A DNA stretch of 64,000 nt from an uncultured Bacilli bacterium (GTDB taxonomy: Bacteria > Bacillota_I > Bacilli_A > RF39 > UBA660), in the NCBI GenBank assembly GCA_934141245.1, contig CAKPCB010000002.1, forward strand, positions 43,076 through 107,075, given 5' to 3'. A program made the position numbers and the translations under genes. Below are positions 1,784-51,135 of this stretch, in pieces. Each line of letters opens with the position of its first letter. The stretch's first letter is position 1. A model generated the notes under the pieces. The model was given only the letters and a program-made list of their open reading frames with translations, was not told where the DNA came from and ran no database searches.

Positions 1784-2680
1784 ATGGAAGATAAATATTA
1801 TGAAAATATAAAACAATGCTTAATTGATAATGAAATCTATAAAAAGGTAAAAGACTACTCAAAAGAAAGGAATACTGTTATAACCTATTATGAAATTGGT
1901 AGATTATTAAATGAGGCTGGTGGTAAGTATGGAGATAATATTATAGATGAATATTCTAAAAGGTTAGTTTTAGAAGTTGGCAAAAAGTATAATCGAAGAA
2001 CGTTATTTAGAATGAAACAATTTTATAATGTATTTAGTAATAAAAAAGTGTCAACACTGCTGACACAATTGAGCTGGTCACATTACTTGTTATTAATTTC
2101 TTTAAAAAATTATGATGAAATTATTTATTACATTAATATTGCAAAAAATAACAATTTGTCTCAAAGAGAATTACAAGAAAAAATAAAAAATAATGAATAT
2201 AATAGAATGTCAATAGAAACCAAAAATAAATTAATTTATGAAGAAAAATTGGAAGTAAAAGATTTAGTGCCAAATCCAATATTAATTAGAAATAAAAATA
2301 ATATTGAGATAATTAATGAAAAAGCATTACATAGTTTAATATTAGAAGATATAGAATCTTTTATGCAAGAACTTGGCAATTCATATAGTTTTATAGGTAG
2401 TGAATATAAGATTAAGATTGGTGACAGAAATCATCATATAGATTTGCTATTATTCAATATAAAGTTTAATTGTTATGTAGTAATTGAACTAAAAGTAATA
2501 GAATTTAAAGCTGAATACATATCACAAGTTCAAAAATACATGAATTACATAGATAAAAATGTAAAAGAACAATTTAATAATAATACAATTGGAATATTAA
2601 TATGCAAAAGGGAAAATAAATTTGTAATAGAATATTGTTCGGATGCAAGAATTGCTATAAGAGAATATGAGTTAGTGTGA
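1784..2680 (+). CDS. DUF1016/YhcG-like PDDEXK-fold nuclease family protein
   Basis: 298 aa; C-terminal D..(E)LK PD-(D/E)xK-like motif (IDLLLFN...YVVIELKVIEF) typical of YhcG/DUF1016; RBS GGAGAG upstream. Confidence 0.55.
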   Translation: MEDKYYENIKQCLIDNEIYKKVKDYSKERNTVITYYEIGRLLNEAGGKYGDNIIDEYSKRLVLEVGKKYNRRTLFRMKQFYNVFSNKKVSTLLTQLSWSHYLLLISLKNYDEIIYYINIAKNNNLSQRELQEKIKNNEYNRMSIETKNKLIYEEKLEVKDLVPNPILIRNKNNIEIINEKALHSLILEDIESFMQELGNSYSFIGSEYKIKIGDRNHHIDLLLFNIKFNCYVVIELKVIEFKAEYISQVQKYMNYIDKNVKEQFNNNTIGILICKRENKFVIEYCSDARIAIREYELV

Positions 2681-2842
2681 TATAATATCTATAGGATGTG
2701 ATTATATGACAAAAGAAGAAATTAATAAAATAATATTTAGTCTTGAAGCAGATGAAGATGTCATTGAGTTTGTTAACAAAAGAATAGCAGAGTTAGAAAA
2801 TAATTCAGTTGAAACTACAGTAGGGCATAATTATACTACAAC

Positions 2843-3094
2843 ATTTAAAAAATATAGATTTTCTTAAGGTTGGTCATCATGGCTCAAATACAAGTAGTAG
2901 TGAAGAATTTATAAATAGTATTAATCCAAAATACAGTTTGATCAGTGTTGGAAAAAATAATAGATATGGCCATTCTAAAAGGTCTGTATTGGATATATTA
3001 AAGAATAGTAAAGTTTATAGAACGGATCAGGATGGAAGTGTTATGTTTAAAATTAAAAATAATAAAATAAAAACATGTAGTGATAGTACTTAAA
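2843..3094 (+). pseudogene. Displaced duplicate of the comEC 3' end (repeat copy 2 plus an alternative 19-codon tail ...DGSVMFKIKNNKIKTCSDST*), no start codon, out of frame with the upstream small ORF
   Basis: Translates to KNIDFLKVGHHGSNTSSSEEFINSINPKYSLISVGKNNRYGHSKRSVLDILKNSKVYRTDQDGS..., the same peptide as ComEC residues ~430-495; divergence begins right after RTDQDGS. Confidence 0.8.
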
Positions 3095-3345
3095 GTCGAA
3101 ATATAGCTAAAATTGCTAAGTGAAATTTGACAATATAGCAGTATAATGATAATAAAAAATGTGAGATAAGCATATTATTAAGTGTAGAGGTTTATAATTG
3201 ATGAGAATTAAACTAATAAAATTTAATAAAAATGTAACATTTTATAATTATATTCCATAATATATACTGTAACACTATATAATAGTGTTTGTAATAGATT
3301 GGGGGTTAATTATAACCCTCTTTTATTTGTATAAATCATAGGGAC

Positions 3346-6970: not shown

Positions 6971-7708
6971 GTGAAGATAATGCAATCAATAAAAGTGATG
7001 GGAATAATAGTAAGTGAAACTAATTATAGCGAATCTAGTAAAATACTTAATATATTGACTAGGGATTTAGGAATAATTAGTGTAATATCTAAAGGATGTA
7101 GAAAGCTAAAAAGCAAGTTAAGAAGTGTAAGTACAAAACTTATATATGGTGAATTTATTATTAGCTACAAAAAAGATGGACTTTCAACATTAATAGATGT
7201 AAATAGCGATTATATATTTAGAAACATAATGAGTGATATTAATACAATCAGCTATGTGTCGTTTATTGTTGAACTTGCAACACAAGTTGCTAAGCAAAAT
7301 AATGATGCTAATATTTTTGATATTTTAATAACTGCTTTAAAAAAAATAGAATTAGGACTTGATCCTTTTGTGATACTTCTTATTGTTGAATTAAAATATT
7401 TAAATTATTTGGGCTTAAGTATTAGCTTAGATTGTTGTAGTAATTGTGGTAATAGTAATAATATAGTAACACTTAGTAGTGATAGGGGAGGCTATATTTG
7501 TAGTAATTGTTATCAAAATGAATTAATAGTAACTAAAAAATCAATTAAAATTATTAATTTGTTGTACCATGTGGAATTAAACAATGTTACAAAAATTACT
7601 TTATCCGATAAAACAAAACAAGAAATAAATTCATTTTTAGATGAATATTATGATAAATATAGCGGATTGTATTTAAAAAGTAAACATTTTATAAAATTAA
7701 TTATTTAA
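6971..7708 (+). CDS. recO: DNA repair protein RecO
   Basis: 245 aa; C-terminal CxxC...CxxC zinc finger (CCSNCG...CSNCY); conserved position after era. Confidence 0.85.
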   Translation: MKIMQSIKVMGIIVSETNYSESSKILNILTRDLGIISVISKGCRKLKSKLRSVSTKLIYGEFIISYKKDGLSTLIDVNSDYIFRNIMSDINTISYVSFIVELATQVAKQNNDANIFDILITALKKIELGLDPFVILLIVELKYLNYLGLSISLDCCSNCGNSNNIVTLSSDRGGYICSNCYQNELIVTKKSIKIINLLYHVELNNVTKITLSDKTKQEINSFLDEYYDKYSGLYLKSKHFIKLII

Positions 7709-7716
7709 GAACAAAA

Positions 7717-7735
7717 GAATAAAAAATTTTTATTC
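7717..7735 (+). terminator. Weak palindromic terminator after recO
   Basis: gaataaaaaatttttattc perfect palindrome. Confidence 0.35.
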
Positions 7736-7744
7736 GAATTGGTC

Positions 7745-8340
7745 GTCGATGATTCCAACATTCCTACTTCATAGAAAAAGTAACCTTTATTCTCCATAGG
7801 CTTAAATCCCAATAGTCGCTACCGTACTTTTTTGCTTTCTATTTTTTTCTATTGCTTTCTTCTTTATTTTTATTTAACTTGCAAAGTGCTTTTTTATCCC
7901 TTCAAACATAATATTTATACTTGCATTTATATCTCTATCATTTGTATTGCGACATTTTTTGCATTCCCACACTCTAATTTTTAAATCATTTGTTATTTCT
8001 GTTTTACTATCACAGTGACTACATATCTTACTACTTGCATAATAGGTATCTACTTGATAATAATATTTCCCAAGAAGTTTTGCCTTTTACTTGCCTACAT
8101 AGTTTTCTTTGCATTCTTTTTAATCTTTTTTCTCTTTTATTTATCTCTTTTGGATTAGGGTATTTTTCTCCATCACTTGTTACTACTAAGTCCTTTATTC
8201 CAAGATCGATTCCAACTATACTTGTTGGTGTTATTTTTTTATGTGTTTCCTCTTCTTTTGTAAAAATTAAAAGATTATTGTTTGCATCTTTTATATCTAT
8301 TTTTATATTACTATATTTTTTGTTTTTATAAATACTCGTT
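7745..8340 (-). mobile_element. Degraded IS200/IS605-family element: internally deleted tnpB (IS605 OrfB-type RNA-guided nuclease) remnant plus right-end / omegaRNA-scaffold-like region
   Basis: Minus-strand translation gives ...SIVGIDLGIKDLVVTSDGEKYPNPKEINKREKRLKRMQRKLCRQVKGKTSWE (RuvC-I) then, after a frameshift with ~100 codons missing, VDTYYASSKICSHCDSKTEITNDLKIRVWECKKCRNTNDRDINASINI (TnpB zinc finger + RuvC-III). The GC-richer structured segment 7745-7880 lies downstream of it. Confidence 0.7.
7874..8245 (-). pseudogene. tnpB: tnpB pseudogene (no start codon, frameshift, RuvC-II region deleted)
   Basis: As above; stop of the zinc-finger frame at 7874-7876; N-terminal frame terminates at 8031-8033. 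Confidence 0.65.
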
Positions 8341-8386
8341 ATACAGTTTGTTCTATAGCTTTGTTTACTGAATTTACTTTTAAAGG

Positions 8387-8412
8387 TAAAAAAATAGGAT
8401 CAAAAATCCTAT
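8387..8412 (-). terminator. Rho-independent terminator of the arginase-family gene
   Basis: ataggat-caaaa-atcctat hairpin followed (on the minus strand) by a 7-nt T-run. Confidence 0.65.
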
Positions 8413-8422
8413 CTTTTACTAA

Positions 8423-9307
8423 TTAAAGCATATTAACTATTTTATTTATTAATTCTAAAACAATTTTAAGAGTTTTGTTATCTTTATCGTTTATGGGATT
8501 ATATTCAACTATATCTATTGATTTAATTAAATCTTTATGTTTTAAAAATTCATCAACAATCTTGAATAAATGTTTAGTATTTATACCGTCTTTATATCCT
8601 ACAGATATTCCAGGTGCAATAATCGGATCAAGAACATCTATATCAATGCTTAAGTGTATTCCATTTGTGTTTTGTGTTGCGATTTGAATTGCGTTATTTA
8701 CATTTGTTTCAATATTTCCTGATATAACATCATTTGTTGAATAGACTTTAATTTTACTATTATCCAAGTTTACCTGTTCTAAGGTATCAATATCTCTTGC
8801 TCCAATTATTACAGTATTGTTATTTCTGAAAAAATTACCATCATGGAATTTTGTAAGTTCATATCCATTATTTTTTGTTACAGTAGCAAGTGGAAGCCCA
8901 TGTATATTCCCCGATGCTGTTGTTTTAAATGTATTAAAATCAGGGTGCGTATCTACCCAAATTATTCCTAGTCTATCATTAGTTTTAATTGAAGCAAGTG
9001 CAGATGCAATTGCGATACTATGATCTCCACCTATCACAATATTTATTGAATCGTCATCGCTATTTTTTAATATTGTTTGATATAGTTCATCGTCAAATTT
9101 ATTAATTCTATCAAAGTTTTTTCTTAAATCATTTTTATCTTGACTTTTGCTAGTGCAATCACAGGTAACATCAATAATTTTATTTATTTTTTTCAAATCT
9201 AATTTCTTTATATATTCTTTAACAATTATAGGCCCTTTACTAGCGCCATCTATATTTACTCCGAGATCTGTACAAGCATTTATAATATTAATTTTTTTTG
9301 TATTCAT
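8423..9307 (-). CDS. Arginase/agmatinase (ureohydrolase) family protein
   Basis: 294 aa; GGDHSIA, DTHPD and SIDIDVLDP manganese-ligand motifs. Confidence 0.7.
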   Translation of the reverse strand: MNTKKINIINACTDLGVNIDGASKGPIIVKEYIKKLDLKKINKIIDVTCDCTSKSQDKNDLRKNFDRINKFDDELYQTILKNSDDDSINIVIGGDHSIAIASALASIKTNDRLGIIWVDTHPDFNTFKTTASGNIHGLPLATVTKNNGYELTKFHDGNFFRNNNTVIIGARDIDTLEQVNLDNSKIKVYSTNDVISGNIETNVNNAIQIATQNTNGIHLSIDIDVLDPIIAPGISVGYKDGINTKHLFKIVDEFLKHKDLIKSIDIVEYNPINDKDNKTLKIVLELINKIVNML

Positions 9308-23144: not shown

Positions 23145-24251
23145 ATGAAAAAAGTAGTAATTGGTATGAGTGGTGGAGTAGATAGCAGTGTTGCAGCTAT
23201 ATTATTAAAAAAAGCGGGTTATGATGTTGTTGGGCTTTTTATGAGAAATTGGGATAGTTCAATAAATAATGATTTTTTAGGCAATCCAAATTTAAATAAT
23301 AATATATGTCCACAAGAACAGGACTATAATGATGCAATAGAGGTATGTAAAAAGTTGGGGATTGAATTACATAGAGTTGATTTTGTAAAAGAATATTGGG
23401 ATAATGTTTTCAATTATTTTTTAGAAGAGTTAAAAGTAGGCAGAACACCTAACCCAGATATTATGTGTAATAAATATATAAAATTTGATGCCTTTGTTAA
23501 AAAAGCAAAGGAACTTGGTGCGGATTATATTGCAACAGGCCACTATGCAAAGATGGAAAATGGTAAGTTATATAAAAGCTTTGACAAAAATAAAGATCAA
23601 ACTTACTTTTTATCTCAACTATCTGAAGAACAATTAAAAAATGTGCTATTTCCACTTGGTGATATTGATAAAACTGAAGTGAGAAAAATTGCTTCTAAAT
23701 ACGGATTAATAACCGCTAATAAAAAAGATTCCACTGGCATCTGCTTTATTGGTGAAAGGAATTTTAAAGAATTTCTTAAAAATTATCTGCCAAATATTCC
23801 TGGTGCCATTATAAATATTGAAAATGGTGAAAAATTAGGTACTCATATTGGCCTTATGTATTATACAATAGGTCAAAGAAAAGGGCTTGATATTGGTGGA
23901 AATGATGAACGATTATTTGTTGTTGGTAAAGATCTTAATAAAAATGTACTATATGTAGCTTTAGGAGATGATAATGAATATTTATATTCTGACAGCTGTA
24001 TAGTTGATAATATTAATTTTAATTGTTCAATCAGGCCATCAAAATGCAGTGCAAAATTTAGATATAGAGCACCAGATTATCCAGTTGAAATTGAATATTT
24101 GGATAATAATCAACTATTAGTTAAATATGATTCCATTAAAGCAGTAACACCTGGGCAAGCTTGTGTATTTTATTTAAATGATCAATGCTTAGGTGGAGGA
24201 ATAATAAAAGAGGTTAGAAAAAATAATGAAAAATTATGGTATTTGTTATAA
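23145..24251 (+). CDS. mnmA: tRNA-specific 2-thiouridylase MnmA
   Basis: 368 aa; PP-loop [15 protein letters not shown], catalytic Cys motifs. Confidence 0.9.
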
Positions 24252-24376
24252 CATTTTAATATAACAAATATTTTTTTGTTTGTCTTTATTTTACCAAAAA
24301 TATAATTGTCAATTTACACTTGATTTTTGTAAATTAAAATGTTAAACTGTTTATAGTTAGAAGGGTAGGTATTAAG

Positions 24377-25144
24377 ATGCAGGAACTAAAGAAAATAATT
24401 GATGATATTGGTATTTCAAAAGTTAGACTAGCAAAATATTTAGGCGTTTCAAGGCAAATGCTTTATAATTATTTAGCATTATCTAAAATTGAAGAGTTAC
24501 CCAAAGAAAAAGCAACTCGACTTTTTGGCCTTTTAGGAATAGAAAATGAAAAAGACTTGGATAGCATTAAAATTGATGGAAATTATATTATTGAAGTTGA
24601 AGGCCGTTTAAATGAAGGCGTTAGAGATTCATCAGAAAGAGAAGTCCTAACAGATTTAAGAAATTTTAATAAAAAAGAACAAGAATTATTGACTGATATA
24701 ATAAACTTATTAAAAGAAAAATTGATGGATGACAATACAAAAACGACTTTTAATGCATACACATATTTATATCATTATTTGCAATCTATGGATAACAACA
24801 AAGAATTAAAATATATTTTAGCATATATGTCTAAATCCATGGGATTCACCGATCCAAATGAATTTGTATTTAATCCAGATCAGCAATTTATATTTGAAAG
24901 CATTATGTTTTCAGGAATGATTTTATATACAAATGGTAATGCATCTAAGTTGAAATTAGCAGAATCGCATAATAGATTTGAAAAATATATAGAGCAGAAA
25001 AAAGAAGAAAAGTTAAGTAGAACTCAAGAATTAAATACAGCTAAAGTACAAGCTTTAAAAGAGCTTGGATATACCGAAATAAATGAATCAAATGCAAAGG
25101 AAGTACTTGAAAAGATTGCTGAAATACAGTCAAGAAAAGTATAA
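24377..25144 (+). CDS. XRE-type helix-turn-helix domain protein of unknown function
   Basis: 255 aa; N-terminal HTH (ISKVRLAKYLGVSRQMLYNYL), remainder helical. Confidence 0.45.
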   Translation: MQELKKIIDDIGISKVRLAKYLGVSRQMLYNYLALSKIEELPKEKATRLFGLLGIENEKDLDSIKIDGNYIIEVEGRLNEGVRDSSEREVLTDLRNFNKKEQELLTDIINLLKEKLMDDNTKTTFNAYTYLYHYLQSMDNNKELKYILAYMSKSMGFTDPNEFVFNPDQQFIFESIMFSGMILYTNGNASKLKLAESHNRFEKYIEQKKEEKLSRTQELNTAKVQALKELGYTEINESNAKEVLEKIAEIQSRKV

Positions 25145-25160
25145 ATTATAACATTAATAG

Positions 25161-25201
25161 AGTAGTGTAGTAGTAAACAGTAAAAATACTACTACTTTTT
25201 G
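25161..25201 (+). terminator. Rho-independent terminator after the HTH gene
   Basis: gtagtagta...tactactac 9-bp stem followed by ttttt. Confidence 0.7.
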
Positions 25202-25810
25202 TTTGGGTGAATAAATTTAAAAATAACAGGAAATTTAATGTAGATGAAAAAAATAATAACAAGATTATTAATATAAATATTATTTAATTCTTTTAAAATT
25301 AAATAATATAATTATAAAATTATTTGTTCATATTGTAAAAACTAATAATACGATTCATAATATGAAAAATTTACATACTTTTATAAAAAATTAGAAATAA
25401 ATAACAAATATAAACTTAATATTAATATTTATTCTCCAAAATTATGTTACCTTTCAAACTTCCGATAATTGATATTATGTTGCCTTTGATATTTCTGATT
25501 TGATTTTTTAATCCTAAATTTAATAATAAATAATTTTAAAAAAATTACTATAATATTTATTTTTATATCCTTCTTCCCTAATTAAAATAGTTTAAATAAA
25601 TTATATATTAATTCTTTTTATATTTGCTTATTTATTTTTAACTTATAATTTATTAAAATTAAATTTTTCTACCTAATATTATAGGATCATCATATTTTGC
25701 ATTGAGATGAATAACTATGCATCTTTTTATATTTCAATACAAAATATTTATTAATATTTTATACATATTTCTTCCCTTTTGATTAAGACTAATTAATAGG
25801 AGGGAAGTTT

Positions 25811-26011
25811 ATGACAAAGAAAAACACTAGTAATCAGAAAATACATTGCGATGTTAATAGTTGTATTCATAACGATACAGATAAATGTTGTTGTGAGCTT
25901 GATGAAATAAAAGTTAGCTGTAATTGTTCTGAAGATAATGTAACTGAAAAAAAAGAAACTATATGTGAGAGTTTCGAATGTAATTGTGGATGTAATAACA
26001 AAGCAGAGTAG
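25811..26011 (+). CDS. DUF1540-like small cysteine-rich protein
   Basis: 66 aa with spaced Cys pattern CxVxxCxHN....CCC.....V.C...... repeated; RBS TAGGAGGGAAG. Confidence 0.5.
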   Translation: MTKKNTSNQKIHCDVNSCIHNDTDKCCCELDEIKVSCNCSEDNVTEKKETICESFECNCGCNNKAE

Positions 26012-26030
26012 GCCTCTTCCCTATTCTGCT

Positions 26031-27203
26031 TTATTTTAATTTATCTAAGAAACTCTTCCCTATTCCAGGGTTAATTACATCAAAATTATCTGCAATGGTT
26101 GCACCAATATCTGCCATAGTATCTAATATGTCCATTTTACCAGGCTCTTTAAAATATCTGTTATAAATTATAACTGGTACATTTTCCCTTGTATGTGCAT
26201 TTGAAATAGTTGGATCATTACCATGATCTGCAGTTATAATCAATAAATCATCATCTTCTAATTTATTTAATATTAATGGTATTTCAACATCTAATTCCTC
26301 AATACTATGTGCATAGCCCTCTACATCTTTGTTGTGTCCATACATACTATCAAAATCATTTAAGTTAATCATACATAATCCAGTAAAGTGTTTTTCCATT
26401 ATATCCATTAATTTACTGATTCCTTCGCTATTTCCTTTGTTAGATTTAACTACTTTAGTGATGCCTTCACCATTGAATATATCATTAATTTTACCTATAG
26501 ATATAACACTATAGCCCTTATCTTTTAATGAATTTAAAACACTTCTAGAAGGTGGCATAACGGCATATTCACATTTTTCACTTGTAAATCTATATTTACC
26601 ACTCTTACCAGTAAATGGCTTTGCAATAATTCTAGCTATCTTCCAATCTTCATTAATTGTAAGTCTTCTTATTTTTTGACAATATTCATTAAGCTTTTGA
26701 ATTGGAATAACATCCTCATGTGCGGCAACTTGTAGTGTAGAATTATATGATGTAAATAATATGACTGAGCCATAATCAATATGTCTATCGCCTAATTCAT
26801 TTATTATATCGGTACCATCACCTGATGTAACCTTATTTCCAATAACTCTTCTTTTAATAAGTAATTCGATTTTATCAATCAATTCAGTTGGGAAACCTTT
26901 ATCTGTAAAAGAGTGAAACGGAGTAAAGTTTTCAATTCCAACTATTTCATAGTGTCCTACAATACTATCTTTTCCTGCATTTTTGGGTTTAGCAATAGTA
27001 TAATATGCATCTACATCATTATTTTCACTCATATTAATGGTATTCATTATACCAAGTCTTTGCAAATTTGGAATAAATAGCGGATATTGTTCATTAATAT
27101 TTTTTAAAGTGTTTGCACCTATATCACCATATTCTTTTGCATCGCTTGCTTCCCCTACTCCAAGAGAATCTAATATCATTAAAAAAATTCTTTTATATTT
27201 CAT
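26031..27203 (-). CDS. deoB: Phosphopentomutase
   Basis: Start moved to MKYKRIFLMILDSLGVGEA (track start is an upstream in-frame Met); alkaline-phosphatase-like metalloenzyme motifs (DSLG, TADHGNDPT). Confidence 0.85.
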   Translation of the reverse strand: MKYKRIFLMILDSLGVGEASDAKEYGDIGANTLKNINEQYPLFIPNLQRLGIMNTINMSENNDVDAYYTIAKPKNAGKDSIVGHYEIVGIENFTPFHSFTDKGFPTELIDKIELLIKRRVIGNKVTSGDGTDIINELGDRHIDYGSVILFTSYNSTLQVAAHEDVIPIQKLNEYCQKIRRLTINEDWKIARIIAKPFTGKSGKYRFTSEKCEYAVMPPSRSVLNSLKDKGYSVISIGKINDIFNGEGITKVVKSNKGNSEGISKLMDIMEKHFTGLCMINLNDFDSMYGHNKDVEGYAHSIEELDVEIPLILNKLEDDDLLIITADHGNDPTISNAHTRENVPVIIYNRYFKEPGKMDILDTMADIGATIADNFDVINPGIGKSFLDKLK

Positions 27204-37852: not shown

Positions 37853-38578
37853 TTAATCTAACTTATTTACTTTTACTTTTGCAGGTCTTATAACTCTGCC
37901 TTTTAATGTATATCCTTTGTTAAAGACTTCCAAGATAACATCATTTCCTTTTTCACTATCCTGAGAAATCATAACAGCTTCATGAATATTAGGATCAAAC
38001 TCTAATCCTAATGATGGTATTTCTTCAACACCAAATTTCTTAAGAACATCTATCAAATGACTATATATTAATTCATAACCTTCATTATATTTGTCGAATT
38101 CTAATGACTGTCCTTTCATATTTAATGCTCTCTCAAAGTTATCAAGAACAGGAAGAATTTCTAATATTAAATCCATATTTGCAAATTTAAGCATATTAGA
38201 TGTTTCTTCATCTTTTCTTTTTCTATAGTTAATTAGTTCAGCTTTTGAAAGCATTACTTTTTCTTCTAATTGTTTAATGCTATTCTTTAATTCTGATATC
38301 TCTTGTTCATGACATTTGCAATTATCCTCAGATTTACAACCACATTCTTTATTACAGTTACAATCATCTATGCAGCCACACTCACAATTATCACCACAAT
38401 TGCAGTTTTCATCACACTTACAATTACATTTATCTGTGCATTCACATTCTTCATGGCATTCGCAATTATCTTCGGATTTACAACTACATTCTTTATTACA
38501 GTTACAATCATCATTGCAATTGCACTCACAATTAGTTTTTTTAACTTCTTTAATTTCCTCTTTTTTGTTTTTCTTCAT
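37853..38578 (-). CDS. grpE: Nucleotide exchange factor GrpE with an atypical N-terminal Cys-rich (CxC-repeat, metallothionein-like) domain
   Basis: 241 aa; residues ~100-241 are canonical GrpE (coiled coil + ...PVLDNFERAL...FDPNIHEAV...); residues 17-93 contain 25 Cys in CxCxC/CxxxC repeats. Confidence 0.85.
   Translation of the reverse strand: MKKNKKEEIKEVKKTNCECNCNDDCNCNKECSCKSEDNCECHEECECTDKCNCKCDENCNCGDNCECGCIDDCNCNKECGCKSEDNCKCHEQEISELKNSIKQLEEKVMLSKAELINYRKRKDEETSNMLKFANMDLILEILPVLDNFERALNMKGQSLEFDKYNEGYELIYSHLIDVLKKFGVEEIPSLGLEFDPNIHEAVMISQDSEKGNDVILEVFNKGYTLKGRVIRPAKVKVNKLD
38299..38530 (-). repeat. Cys-rich coding low-complexity region of grpE with an internal ~72-bp direct repeat (38317-38389 vs 38461-38532, period 144 bp)
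   Basis: Manual alignment of the two units, ~85% identical; encode CECNCNDDCNCNKECSCKSEDNCECHEE / CECGCIDDCNCNKECGCKSEDNCKCHEQ. Confidence 0.85.
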
Positions 38579-48186: not shown

Positions 48187-51135
48187 TTATTTATTTACGC
48201 TATCAAGCTTTACACTAACTAACTTACTTACACCAGATTCTTGCATTGTTATTCCATATAACATATCAGCATATTCCATAGTTTTTGTTTTATGTGTAAT
48301 AATTAAAAATTGCGTTTTATCTTTATAATTATTTAAATATTGTCCAAAATTATCAACATTTGCTTCATCTAATGCAGCTTCTACCTCATCAAATAAGCAA
48401 AAAGGAATAGTTTTTATATTTAATATTGCAAAAATCAAACATATCGCCGTAAGTGTTTTCTCACCCCCAGATAGCAAATTTATTGATGTTAATTTTTTAC
48501 CTGGTGGACTAGCAATAATATCAATCCCAGTCTCTAATAAATTTTTTGGATCAGTTAGTTTTAATTCTGCACTACCACCTTTGAAAAGTTGTTTAAATAC
48601 TTTGTTAAATTCTATTTTTATATTATTAAATGTATTTAAAAACTCTTCTTTCATAACGGAATCCATTTCTTCTATTATTTCTAATAACGTTTCTTTTGCA
48701 TTTAACAAATCATTTCTTTGAGAAGACAAAAATTCATATCTTTCTGAAACTTTTCTATAGTCTTCAATAGCTTGAATATTTACCATTCCAATTCTTTTTA
48801 ATGCATCTTTATATGAAATAACCATTTTTCTTGCATCATCTTTATTAATTTCAAGAACATAATTTGCCTTAGCTTTTTCATAAGTCATTTCATAATCAGT
48901 ACTTAGAATAGATAAATAATTGTCAAGTTTAATATTCATACGATTTTGTGAAATTTCATGTTCTTTTAGTTCTTTCTCAAATTGATATAACGAACTATTA
49001 TTAACTTTAATTTTTGCTTGCTCCTCATCCAATTTAGAATTTATATCATCCTTTTGTTTCGTTAATAATTTTAGTTGCCTTAACATATCTTCTTTTTTTC
49101 TATTTGTATCATAAAATAAATTTAATATTCTTTCTTCTTCTTTATCTAGGGATGAGTCAATAATATTTTCTAATGACTTTAATTCTGATATAACCGCATC
49201 ATATCTTTCATTTAAATCATTATTAATATTATTTTTAATATTTATTTTTTCCTGCAATTGAACTATTAATATTTCATCATTTTTTATAGCAGTATTATTA
49301 GTATTTATTTTATTATCAATTTCTTCTAAACTACTTGGATATGTAGCTAACAACTCGTTTAATTCTTGTTCTTCATTTTTTAATTTGACTAATTCTTGTT
49401 TTTCAGAAAATATACTCTTTGTAACATTAATACTACCACCACTCATTGTTCCACCAACATGAACAACATCACCATCTAATGTAACAATTTTATATCTTTG
49501 ACCAATTTTTTTACTGATTCTATTAGCTGTATCAATATTATCTACTAATATTACATTTCCAAGTTGATTAGACACTATATTATAATATTTTTTATCATAC
49601 TGAACTATATCTGACATAATTGATAAATATCCATTATCATCACTTAATACATCCATAGTATCAAGATCTATTCCTCTTGGTTTTATAACACTAATAGGGA
49701 AAAAAGTAGCCCTTCCAAGTCTATTCTCCTTTAGATAATTAATAGCATTTTTAGCTGATACTTCATCATCTACAACAATAAATTGTTTTACTGATGCAAG
49801 TGAAACATCTAAAGCCTTAATATACTTTTCATCAGTATCTATCAAACTACCTAATGTATTATGAATACCATTTAATCTGGGATTAGATAAAACAGCTTTA
49901 ATACTAGAACTATATGTACCTCCACTTTCTAAAAAATCATTAATCATATTAATTTTATGTTTTACTTCGTTAAGTGACATTTTTTTATTATTAAATTCTT
50001 GCTCTAATGATTTTCTTTTTAAATATATATTGTTTATTTCTAACTGTAATTTATTAATTTTAATATTTAAATCCTCAAACTCTTTAGTTAATTCTTGAAT
50101 ATCTTTTTCTGTTTTATATTTATCGTTGTCAAGTTTTAACTTTATCTCTTTAAGGTTAATAATATTGTTATGAACTTTATCATCTGTTGCACTATATTTT
50201 TTTCTTTCATTAAATATTTTCTTTTCACCATTTAATCTTTCCTCTTCTTTTGTAAGAATTAAAAGATTATTGTTTGCATCTTTTATATCTGTTTCTAATT
50301 TCAACAGTTTAGATTTAAGTTCAATTATATTAGTGTCAAAATTAGTACCTTTCAAATTTAAATTCATTAGGGAATTATTTAACTCTTCAATTTTCTTTTG
50401 ATGTTTTTTTATGTCCTCATTTAATACTGTAATTTCATCTGCAAGCAATGAAACCTCAACATTTTTTAATTTTTCTTTTATATCCAAATATTCAGTTGCT
50501 TTTTCAGATTGCTCTTTTAATGGTTCAACTTGTATTTGTAGCTCACCAACAATGTCATCAACTCTCTCTAAGTTATTGTTAGTTTTGTCAAGTTTTTTTA
50601 AGGCTTCTTCTTTCCTCTTTTTATATTTTAATACGCCAGCTGCACTTTCAAAAATAAACCTTCTATCATATTCTGAATTTGATAATATTTTTTGTACTTC
50701 ACCTTGTGAAATTATATTAAATGAATTCTTACCAATTCCACTGTCTAAAAACATGTCTGTAATATCTTTTAATCTGCATTTTTCATTGTTTATGAAATAT
50801 TCATTTTCACCGCTTCTATACACTCTTCTTTTAACGGTTACTTCATTATAAGGTAAATTTATATAATTATCACTATTATCAAAAGTAAGTGAAACAGTTG
50901 CAACATTAAGTGGTTTTCTGCTTTTTGAACCAGAAAAAATAACATCACTCATATTAGTATCACCACGTAGTGATTTAACAGATTGCTCACCTAAAACCCA
51001 TCTTACTGCATCTACAATGTTACTTTTTCCACTTCCATTTGGTCCAACTATACATGTTGTTTTGCCGTTTAATTCAATTGTTAATTTATCAGCAAAAGAC
51101 TTAAAACCAGTTGCACTTATTTCTTTTAAATACAT
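48187..51135 (-). CDS. smc: Chromosome segregation protein SMC (short, 982 aa)
   Basis: N-terminal Walker A GPNGSGKSNI, hinge region, C-terminal LSGGEKTLTAI...LFDEVEAALD. Confidence 0.9.
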   Translation of the reverse strand: MYLKEISATGFKSFADKLTIELNGKTTCIVGPNGSGKSNIVDAVRWVLGEQSVKSLRGDTNMSDVIFSGSKSRKPLNVATVSLTFDNSDNYINLPYNEVTVKRRVYRSGENEYFINNEKCRLKDITDMFLDSGIGKNSFNIISQGEVQKILSNSEYDRRFIFESAAGVLKYKKRKEEALKKLDKTNNNLERVDDIVGELQIQVEPLKEQSEKATEYLDIKEKLKNVEVSLLADEITVLNEDIKKHQKKIEELNNSLMNLNLKGTNFDTNIIELKSKLLKLETDIKDANNNLLILTKEEERLNGEKKIFNERKKYSATDDKVHNNIINLKEIKLKLDNDKYKTEKDIQELTKEFEDLNIKINKLQLEINNIYLKRKSLEQEFNNKKMSLNEVKHKINMINDFLESGGTYSSSIKAVLSNPRLNGIHNTLGSLIDTDEKYIKALDVSLASVKQFIVVDDEVSAKNAINYLKENRLGRATFFPISVIKPRGIDLDTMDVLSDDNGYLSIMSDIVQYDKKYYNIVSNQLGNVILVDNIDTANRISKKIGQRYKIVTLDGDVVHVGGTMSGGSINVTKSIFSEKQELVKLKNEEQELNELLATYPSSLEEIDNKINTNNTAIKNDEILIVQLQEKINIKNNINNDLNERYDAVISELKSLENIIDSSLDKEEERILNLFYDTNRKKEDMLRQLKLLTKQKDDINSKLDEEQAKIKVNNSSLYQFEKELKEHEISQNRMNIKLDNYLSILSTDYEMTYEKAKANYVLEINKDDARKMVISYKDALKRIGMVNIQAIEDYRKVSERYEFLSSQRNDLLNAKETLLEIIEEMDSVMKEEFLNTFNNIKIEFNKVFKQLFKGGSAELKLTDPKNLLETGIDIIASPPGKKLTSINLLSGGEKTLTAICLIFAILNIKTIPFCLFDEVEAALDEANVDNFGQYLNNYKDKTQFLIITHKTKTMEYADMLYGITMQESGVSKLVSVKLDSVNK

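Follow-up and report, generated by a model that had tools for sequence, protein, structure and literature searches.

A short stretch of smc inside a decayed tnpB gene: probable scar of a templated microindel in a gut Bacilli genome

We analyzed a 64,000-nt stretch of DNA (the window) from an uncultured gut Bacilli with low GC content (26%). Between recO (6971–7708, + strand) and an arginase-family gene (8423–9307, − strand) lies a decayed, tnpB-only element of the IS200/IS605 family. recO flanks the element's right end, which adjoins the recO stop codon and includes an omegaRNA-like region (7706–7873, − strand) that is kept in the related copies L022, L023 and L037 up to about 7706–7711. The arginase-family gene flanks the left end, and its terminator, a hairpin followed by a T-run (8387–8412, − strand), abuts the truncated tnpB. 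Conceptual translation of the minus strand from about 8385 to 7874 gives matches to OrfB_IS605 (PF01385, 8.5e-12) and Cas12f1-like_TNB (PF07282, 4.4e-15). Elsewhere in the window, an intact smc gene (48187–51135, − strand) encodes a protein of 982 amino acids with the Pfam domains SMC_N and SMC_hinge.

The ancestral tnpB was inferred from paralogous or orthologous IS copies that are 88–96% identical. A protein search with the remnant gave close TnpB relatives. Intact copies include L021 and L022, which are from metagenomes, and L037, which encodes a 375-amino-acid TnpB in Clostridium sp. CAG:710 and is the closest intact relative. Among genomes that carry the IS, the nearest relatives are 'Clostridium sp. 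CAG:710' and Hadza gut MAGs labelled 'uncultured Bacilli bacterium'. We take these to be RF39-like Bacilli with reduced genomes. Scanning genomes for the right-end/omegaRNA pattern turned up 11 copies of the IS in related MAGs; the window's own locus is not among the copies from that scan.

What is left of tnpB in the window falls into three fragments, all on the minus strand. Fragment A (8299–8384) corresponds to codons ~94–125 of the 375-amino-acid intact protein and is 93.9% identical to L037. Fragment B (8083–8245) corresponds to codons ~172–230, is 95.5% identical to L037, and includes the RuvC-I motif GIDLG (at 8199–8213). Fragment C (7874–8082) encodes the zinc-ribbon/TNB region and the DRDINAS motif, ends with a stop codon at 7874–7876, and is in a different frame from B. 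The frameshift between B and C is due to a 227-nt deletion (L037 1029–1255) at an AAGG microhomology, which also removed the region of the RuvC-II glutamate, so the remnant lacks a complete RuvC D-E-D triad in an intact ORF. Homology to tnpB begins at 8384 (codon 94), right after the terminator of the arginase-family gene; the first 93 codons and the left end of the IS are missing, and only the right end is conserved in the window. Upstream of the remnant's open stretch, there is no start codon in frame. Judging by its reading frames, the remnant is clearly a pseudogene.

The 5' truncation (8384–8394) starts within about 2 nt of the left end of the IS in a sister lineage (L026:4583–4640, where TTTTTTTA meets TCTTATAGG...). 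Because these boundaries nearly coincide, the 5' deletion would span from the left-end boundary to codon 94 of tnpB. Simple microhomologies (CCTAT, ATC) gave no clean solution for this joint, and aberrant excision associated with the end of the element is a conceivable source of the truncation. Internal deletions at short repeats are also found in other IS copies of related genomes (P0044, P0049/L023 and P0112). We noticed that P0049 (the L023 copy, with 25 member sequences) has an in-frame ORF of 123 amino acids that fuses the N-terminal HTH directly to the C-terminal zinc-ribbon/TNB, and that P0044 and P0112 are fusions of a similar kind, left by internal deletion and with the joint at a GKYY repeat. 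The decayed copy in L023 (5001–5372) lies on a 122-kb contig, between two parB-like genes and soj/parA.

A scan of 7300–8700 against Rfam gave sub-threshold matches only: a tRNA-like match on the arginase terminator, and a match to Ref70 on the right-end region. The latter ('Enterococcus sRNA 70'; 7721–7830, − strand) scored 22 bits (E = 0.48). It is possible that Ref70 RNAs are themselves associated with tnpB.

Within the remnant, positions 8246–8302 match positions 50238–50294 of smc at 55 of 57 bases, and if the alignment is stretched to 8305, at 57 of 60. Our direct comparison of the two sites in the window thus confirmed the match that had been reported in the original prediction. Retranslation of the minus strand also gave the same peptides as before: DIKDANNNLLILTKEEE for smc and DIKDANNNLLIFTKEEE for the remnant, where GIDLG follows 13 codons on. 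Both of the mismatches are A in the remnant and G in smc (+ strand). The count of two A/G differences was right, although one of them (at 8299) is native tnpB sequence that lies to the left of the crossover. The exact core of the match is 34 nt (8265–8298, identical to 50257–50290). When the window was simulated 30 times with a third-order Markov model, exact direct repeats reached no more than 16–22 nt, so the match is not due to chance, as had been argued from its length. Besides this pair and two local duplications elsewhere, the window has no long repeats.

The original prediction named two ways that it could fail, namely that the patch is a widespread repeat or that it is an assembly chimera. 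The patch is neither. There are two copies in the window; a search for the 34-mer in representatives of 185,579 species (GTDB, one genome per species) gave no match, and a search of JGI metagenomes gave one match, which is an smc contig. As for assembly, L011, a contig of 153 kb that was assembled from a different sample (ERZ27287454), is identical to window positions 7600–8500 at 900 of 901 bases. Contigs L014 and L027 likewise have the patch in the context of the remnant, which brings the total to at least three independent assemblies. Also, four Logan contigs (k = 31) that extend from the arginase side (L012, L016, L018 and L019) all stop exactly at 8269. This is the branch point in the de Bruijn graph that is predicted if the 34-nt core occurs twice in each sample, with the other occurrence being in smc.

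The patch had been described as lying next to the tnpB remnant, but it is internal to the tnpB reading frame, with tnpB coding sequence on both sides. The match is a mutational scar, in which 27 bases of smc replace 138 bases of the decaying tnpB. Reading along the coding (minus) strand, the patch (8246–8302) begins with 4 nt of native tnpB (8299–8302), whose likeness to smc is due to chance. Next is the left crossover microhomology, AGATATAAAAGA (8287–8298, 12 nt), which is the same in smc and in the intact tnpB copies L021, L022 and L037, and which encodes D-I-K-(D/E) in both genes. The smc-derived tract, TGCAAACAATAATCTTTTAATTTTTAC (8260–8286, 27 nt), matches smc at 26 of 27 positions and is not found in any of the intact tnpB copies. 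In a BLAST comparison of the remnant to L037, the unmatched part is exactly 8260–8286. The sole difference between the tract and smc, at 8264, places a phenylalanine in the remnant where SMC proteins have a conserved leucine. Last is the right crossover microhomology, AAAAGAAGAGGAAA (8246–8259), which encodes K-E-E-E in both genes. Compared to tnpB from L021, the right anchor has 10 exact nucleotides, one mismatch, and 3 more matching nucleotides. Since the glutamate codons at this anchor differ among tnpB copies, the right microhomology is 10–14 nt, depending on which glutamate codons the ancestor had.

The replacement is also apparent from the proteins. Intact TnpB reads NIKIDIKE-[46 aa]-KEEE..GIDLG, while the remnant reads NIKIDIK-DANNNLLIFT-KEEE..GIDLG. 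More fully, the ancestral protein as represented by L021, L022 and L037 reads ...NKKYSNIKIDIKE KMIKVPKLGLVKIRGYRNLNELTDRIINITIEKEKTNKYYVSVITE KEEE TPKKITPTSIVGIDLG..., and the window reads ...NKKYSNIKIDIK DANNNLLIFT KEEE THKKITPTSIVGIDLG. At the DNA level, and with the joints marked by slashes, intact tnpB is ...AATATAAAAATAGATATAAAAGA / AAAAATGATAAAGG...(138 nt)... / AAAAGAAGAG(A/G)AAACACC; in the remnant, just 27 nt lie between these flanks. The 138 nt that were lost correspond to codons ~126–172, just upstream of RuvC-I. The uniquely smc part of the match is just these 27 nt; counted together with the anchors, the tract is at most 53 nt. The two anchors, at about 26 of the 57 nt (about half of the match), are similarity between tnpB and smc that predates the event; they are similar because both genes encode DIK(D/E) and KEEE with A-rich codons. 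Since tnpB and smc read both anchors in the same codon phase, the net change of −111 nt is in frame. The replacement does not account for two additional substitutions by the right joint (CAT versus CCA).

Which copy is ancestral was to be checked against relatives, and the relatives point to smc. The matching segment (50238–50294, − strand) encodes codons ~281–299, in the N-terminal coiled-coil arm, and is native to smc. SMC orthologues at 96%, 75%, 74% and 68% identity have 980–986 amino acids and are colinear through this segment (IK.LN..LL.LTKEEE.LNGEK), with no indel. For the 75% orthologue, the DNA at the segment is diverged yet homologous. As the SMC orthologues are colinear, and as the tract is absent from intact tnpB copies, comparative sequence analysis indicates that smc was the donor and the tnpB remnant was the recipient. 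Capture or gene conversion of an smc fragment, which was one of the original suggestions, thus had the right direction; it did not anticipate that the patch lies inside the ORF, that it replaces 138 nt, or that only 27 nt are uniquely from smc.

A sister lineage, whose arginase is 93–95% identical (amino acids) and whose smc is 92.8% identical (nucleotides), bears on the age of the insertion. In its contigs L024–L026, an intact left end of the IS and the start of tnpB follow the same arginase terminator. Because the IS is at the same site in both lineages, the insertion would be older than their split, and the window's lineage holds a decayed copy. The sister contigs end at most 17 nt into tnpB, and the allele from before the event was not recovered at this locus; a scan of JGI metagenomes with the arginase-terminator pattern gave no match for it either. 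L028 (k = 31, from the same sample as the sister contigs) runs unbroken through the smc 34-mer, which hints that the sister lineage does not have the patch.

We propose that the patch is a non-functional scar left by a single exchange at two stretches that the genes share, with 138 nt of tnpB giving way to smc sequence. We consider this to be very probable. In this event, a short stretch of smc, either from the cell's own chromosome or from a conspecific's, would have been swapped for the 138 nt, and the joints would have fallen in stretches that tnpB and smc happen to share (12 nt and 10–14 nt). [quoted passage not shown] Four things about the product fit SPDIR: the tract is short and ectopic, its donor lies elsewhere in the genome, there is microhomology at either joint, and the two partners are otherwise unrelated. 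Alternatively, the same outcome would be expected from template switching or break repair mediated by microhomology. The DNA duplex energies of the anchors are roughly −9 to −12 kcal/mol (a crude estimate), and the anchors are far shorter than the length that is usually needed for RecA-dependent homologous exchange. Competence genes (comEC and a comEA-like gene) are nearby, so the donor could equally well have been the cell's own smc or an smc strand taken up from a conspecific. The composite structure of the patch, the direction from smc to tnpB, the microhomologies and the pseudogene state follow from the sequence comparisons. We infer both the molecular route (single-strand annealing or template switching) and the absence of function; SPDIR, template switching and two-step events would all be expected to leave this same sequence.

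The GC skew and the gene orientation flip at about 25.5 kb, which gives no power to separate these mechanisms. We noticed that in the region around the flip (24000–27000), genes switch from mostly the + strand (239–25144) to mostly the − strand (26031–63489). At the switch, GC skew goes from about +0.2 to about −0.25, and cumulative skew has its maximum near 25 kb. It looks like a replication terminus is inside the window, in which case the tnpB remnant and smc are on opposite replichores. The switch lies in a long AT-rich intergenic region that contains a small cysteine-rich ORF (25880–26031, + strand; MTKKNTSNQKIHCDVNSCIHNDTDKCCCELDEIKVSCNCSEDNV...CNCGCNNKAE).

Other features of the window are also worth describing. 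The 3' end of comEC is duplicated as a 239-nt direct repeat (1497–1735 and 2822–3060, 91% identity) whose copies flank a gene for a YhcG/DUF1016 PDDEXK nuclease (ORF 1784–2680). Strain L001 does not have window positions 1949–3140 (most of yhcG and the second copy of the repeat), so this is a strain-variable indel. And a GrpE homologue (37853–38578, − strand; Pfam GrpE at residues 84–239) has an N-terminal extension of about 80 amino acids that is made up of cysteine-rich repeats (CECNCNDDCNCNKECSCKSEDNCECHEECEC...). At the DNA level, the extension is a family of direct repeats (38303–38534); such a metallothionein-like N-terminus is unusual for GrpE.

Because a + strand transcript across 8246–8302 would be complementary to smc mRNA, we also considered that the locus makes an RNA, with 34–57 nt of complementarity to smc mRNA, that regulates smc as a trans-acting antisense sRNA derived from the scar. 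On the + strand, recO lacks a strong intrinsic terminator ahead of the IS end, which would leave room for such a transcript. However, there is a terminator-like hairpin and T-run (8212–8228, + strand) between recO and the patch. A consensus scan of the + strand found 11 promoter-like sites, as compared to 9.8 in shuffled sequences, and the only candidate + strand promoters near the patch begin inside it. No Rfam family scored above threshold, and the patch is fully accounted for as a product of recombination. Strains are nearly identical at the patch, so that conservation beyond that of a neutral remnant is not discernible. We think that an antisense regulator is very unlikely. The more specific idea that the scar was co-opted, so that readthrough from recO across the dead IS, with 34–57 nt of perfect or near-perfect complementarity to smc mRNA, modulates the synthesis of SMC, also seems highly improbable to us. 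If it were true, it would be a regulatory antisense RNA that was born of illegitimate recombination in a transposon remnant.

Another possibility is that smc sequence was captured as flanking DNA, by aberrant transposition of an IS or IStron copy that was once in smc. The orientation of the patch relative to tnpB does correspond to the coding sense of smc. But the patch is internal, with tnpB codons 94–125 upstream and codon 172 onward downstream; it is about 375 nt past the start codon of tnpB and farther still from the left end of the IS. Furthermore, smc itself is undamaged and lines up with its orthologues throughout the segment, and in the sister lineage the IS is at the same site between arginase and recO, so the element did not come from smc. 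This makes flank capture extremely unlikely.

That the patch is an omegaRNA guide or a retargeting module, tying TnpB to smc, is hardly credible. Nothing but its proximity to the tnpB remnant suggests this. In TnpB systems, the guide adjoins the right end on its 3' side, which here means positions below about 7706; the patch, inside the ORF, is some 540 nt from there. The local tnpB is also frameshifted and lacks the RuvC-II region. The original prediction had correctly placed the patch away from the guide position, which is within the 3' end of recO rather than at 7710–7745. Given this distance, and with promoter-like sites at the level of shuffled sequence, we found no support for its antisense or RNA-guided alternative.

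Chance similarity between AT-rich coding regions that are rich in Lys, Glu and Asn does account for the two anchors (26 nt), but the 34-nt exact core is beyond the 22 nt reached in simulations, intact tnpB does not have the 27-nt core, and an assembly chimera would not recur at the same junction in independent assemblies of different samples, so we discount chance or misassembly as explanations of the whole match almost entirely. Finally, the two copies could be the template and variable repeats of a diversity-generating retroelement, as both differences are A in the remnant and G in smc (+ strand), but with just two differences among many adenines, one of which (8299) is native tnpB outside the tract, and with an smc segment that is conserved among orthologues instead of hypervariable, the probability of this is negligible.

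If the patch is a scar of recombination, as we propose, then no RNA-guided or regulatory account is required for a housekeeping gene and a transposon remnant to have a 57-nt match, and the chief value of the finding is explanatory. As a natural case of a templated microindel, it is also unusually clean, in that the donor, the recipient, both joints, and the approximate ancestral sequence are identified. And it suggests a simple way to mine MAGs for such events: the signature would be a pseudogene, otherwise alignable, that is broken by a short exact copy of sequence from elsewhere in the genome, with microhomology to the donor on either side.

The recipient resembles IS1341-type elements, which are tnpB-only: OrfB_IS605 and TNB domains are both recognizable in the window's copy, and its right end, where the omegaRNA-like region lies, is conserved. 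Unlike those elements, it has no left end, and its tnpB lacks the first 93 codons, the part that precedes RuvC-I, and the RuvC-II region. Nothing in the family corresponds to the smc tract.

Template switching of the FoSTeS/MMBIR type yields deletions with short templated insertions and with microhomology at each switch point. This scar is similarly a deletion with a short insertion that was copied from elsewhere and with microhomology at the joints. In contrast to SPDIR, the nascent strand switches templates, and no free single strand is incorporated; in this case the products would be the same.

Microindels produced by SPDIR are 3 to about 100 bp long, come from single-stranded donors that are intragenomic or extragenomic, and have simple or extended microhomologies at both joints; the hallmarks of SPDIR are annealing of single strands at the replication fork and suppression by RecA, DprA, RecFOR, RecJ and ExoX (bioRxiv 10.1101/2023.11.22.568220; 10.1101/2024.07.02.601687). 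In the same detection assay, plain deletions were 3–195 bp and SPDIR patterns were about 100 bp, and the authors state that reports from outside Acinetobacter are scarce (bioRxiv 10.1101/2023.11.22.568220; 10.1101/2024.07.02.601687). Our case has a short heterologous tract (27 nt, or at most 53 nt with the anchors, against ~3–100 bp for SPDIR) from an ectopic and probably intragenomic donor. This donor is identifiable and otherwise non-homologous to the recipient (smc codons ~281–299, a segment native to smc in orthologues down to 68% identity). There are microhomologies at both joints (12 nt on the left; 10 + 3 nt, or up to 14 nt, on the right). As with SPDIR, the donor and the recipient are otherwise unrelated, and the product resembles a cluster of polymorphisms or an indel. 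Unlike the SPDIR events, our case is in the genome of a natural, uncultured gut Bacilli and is known from its sequence instead of from a selection assay. Also, the recipient tract of 138 nt is longer than the ~100 bp that is usually quoted, and is near the top of the reported deletion sizes. This type of mutation is known but rarely documented, and we view the scar in tnpB as a new and apparently natural instance of an SPDIR-type templated microindel.
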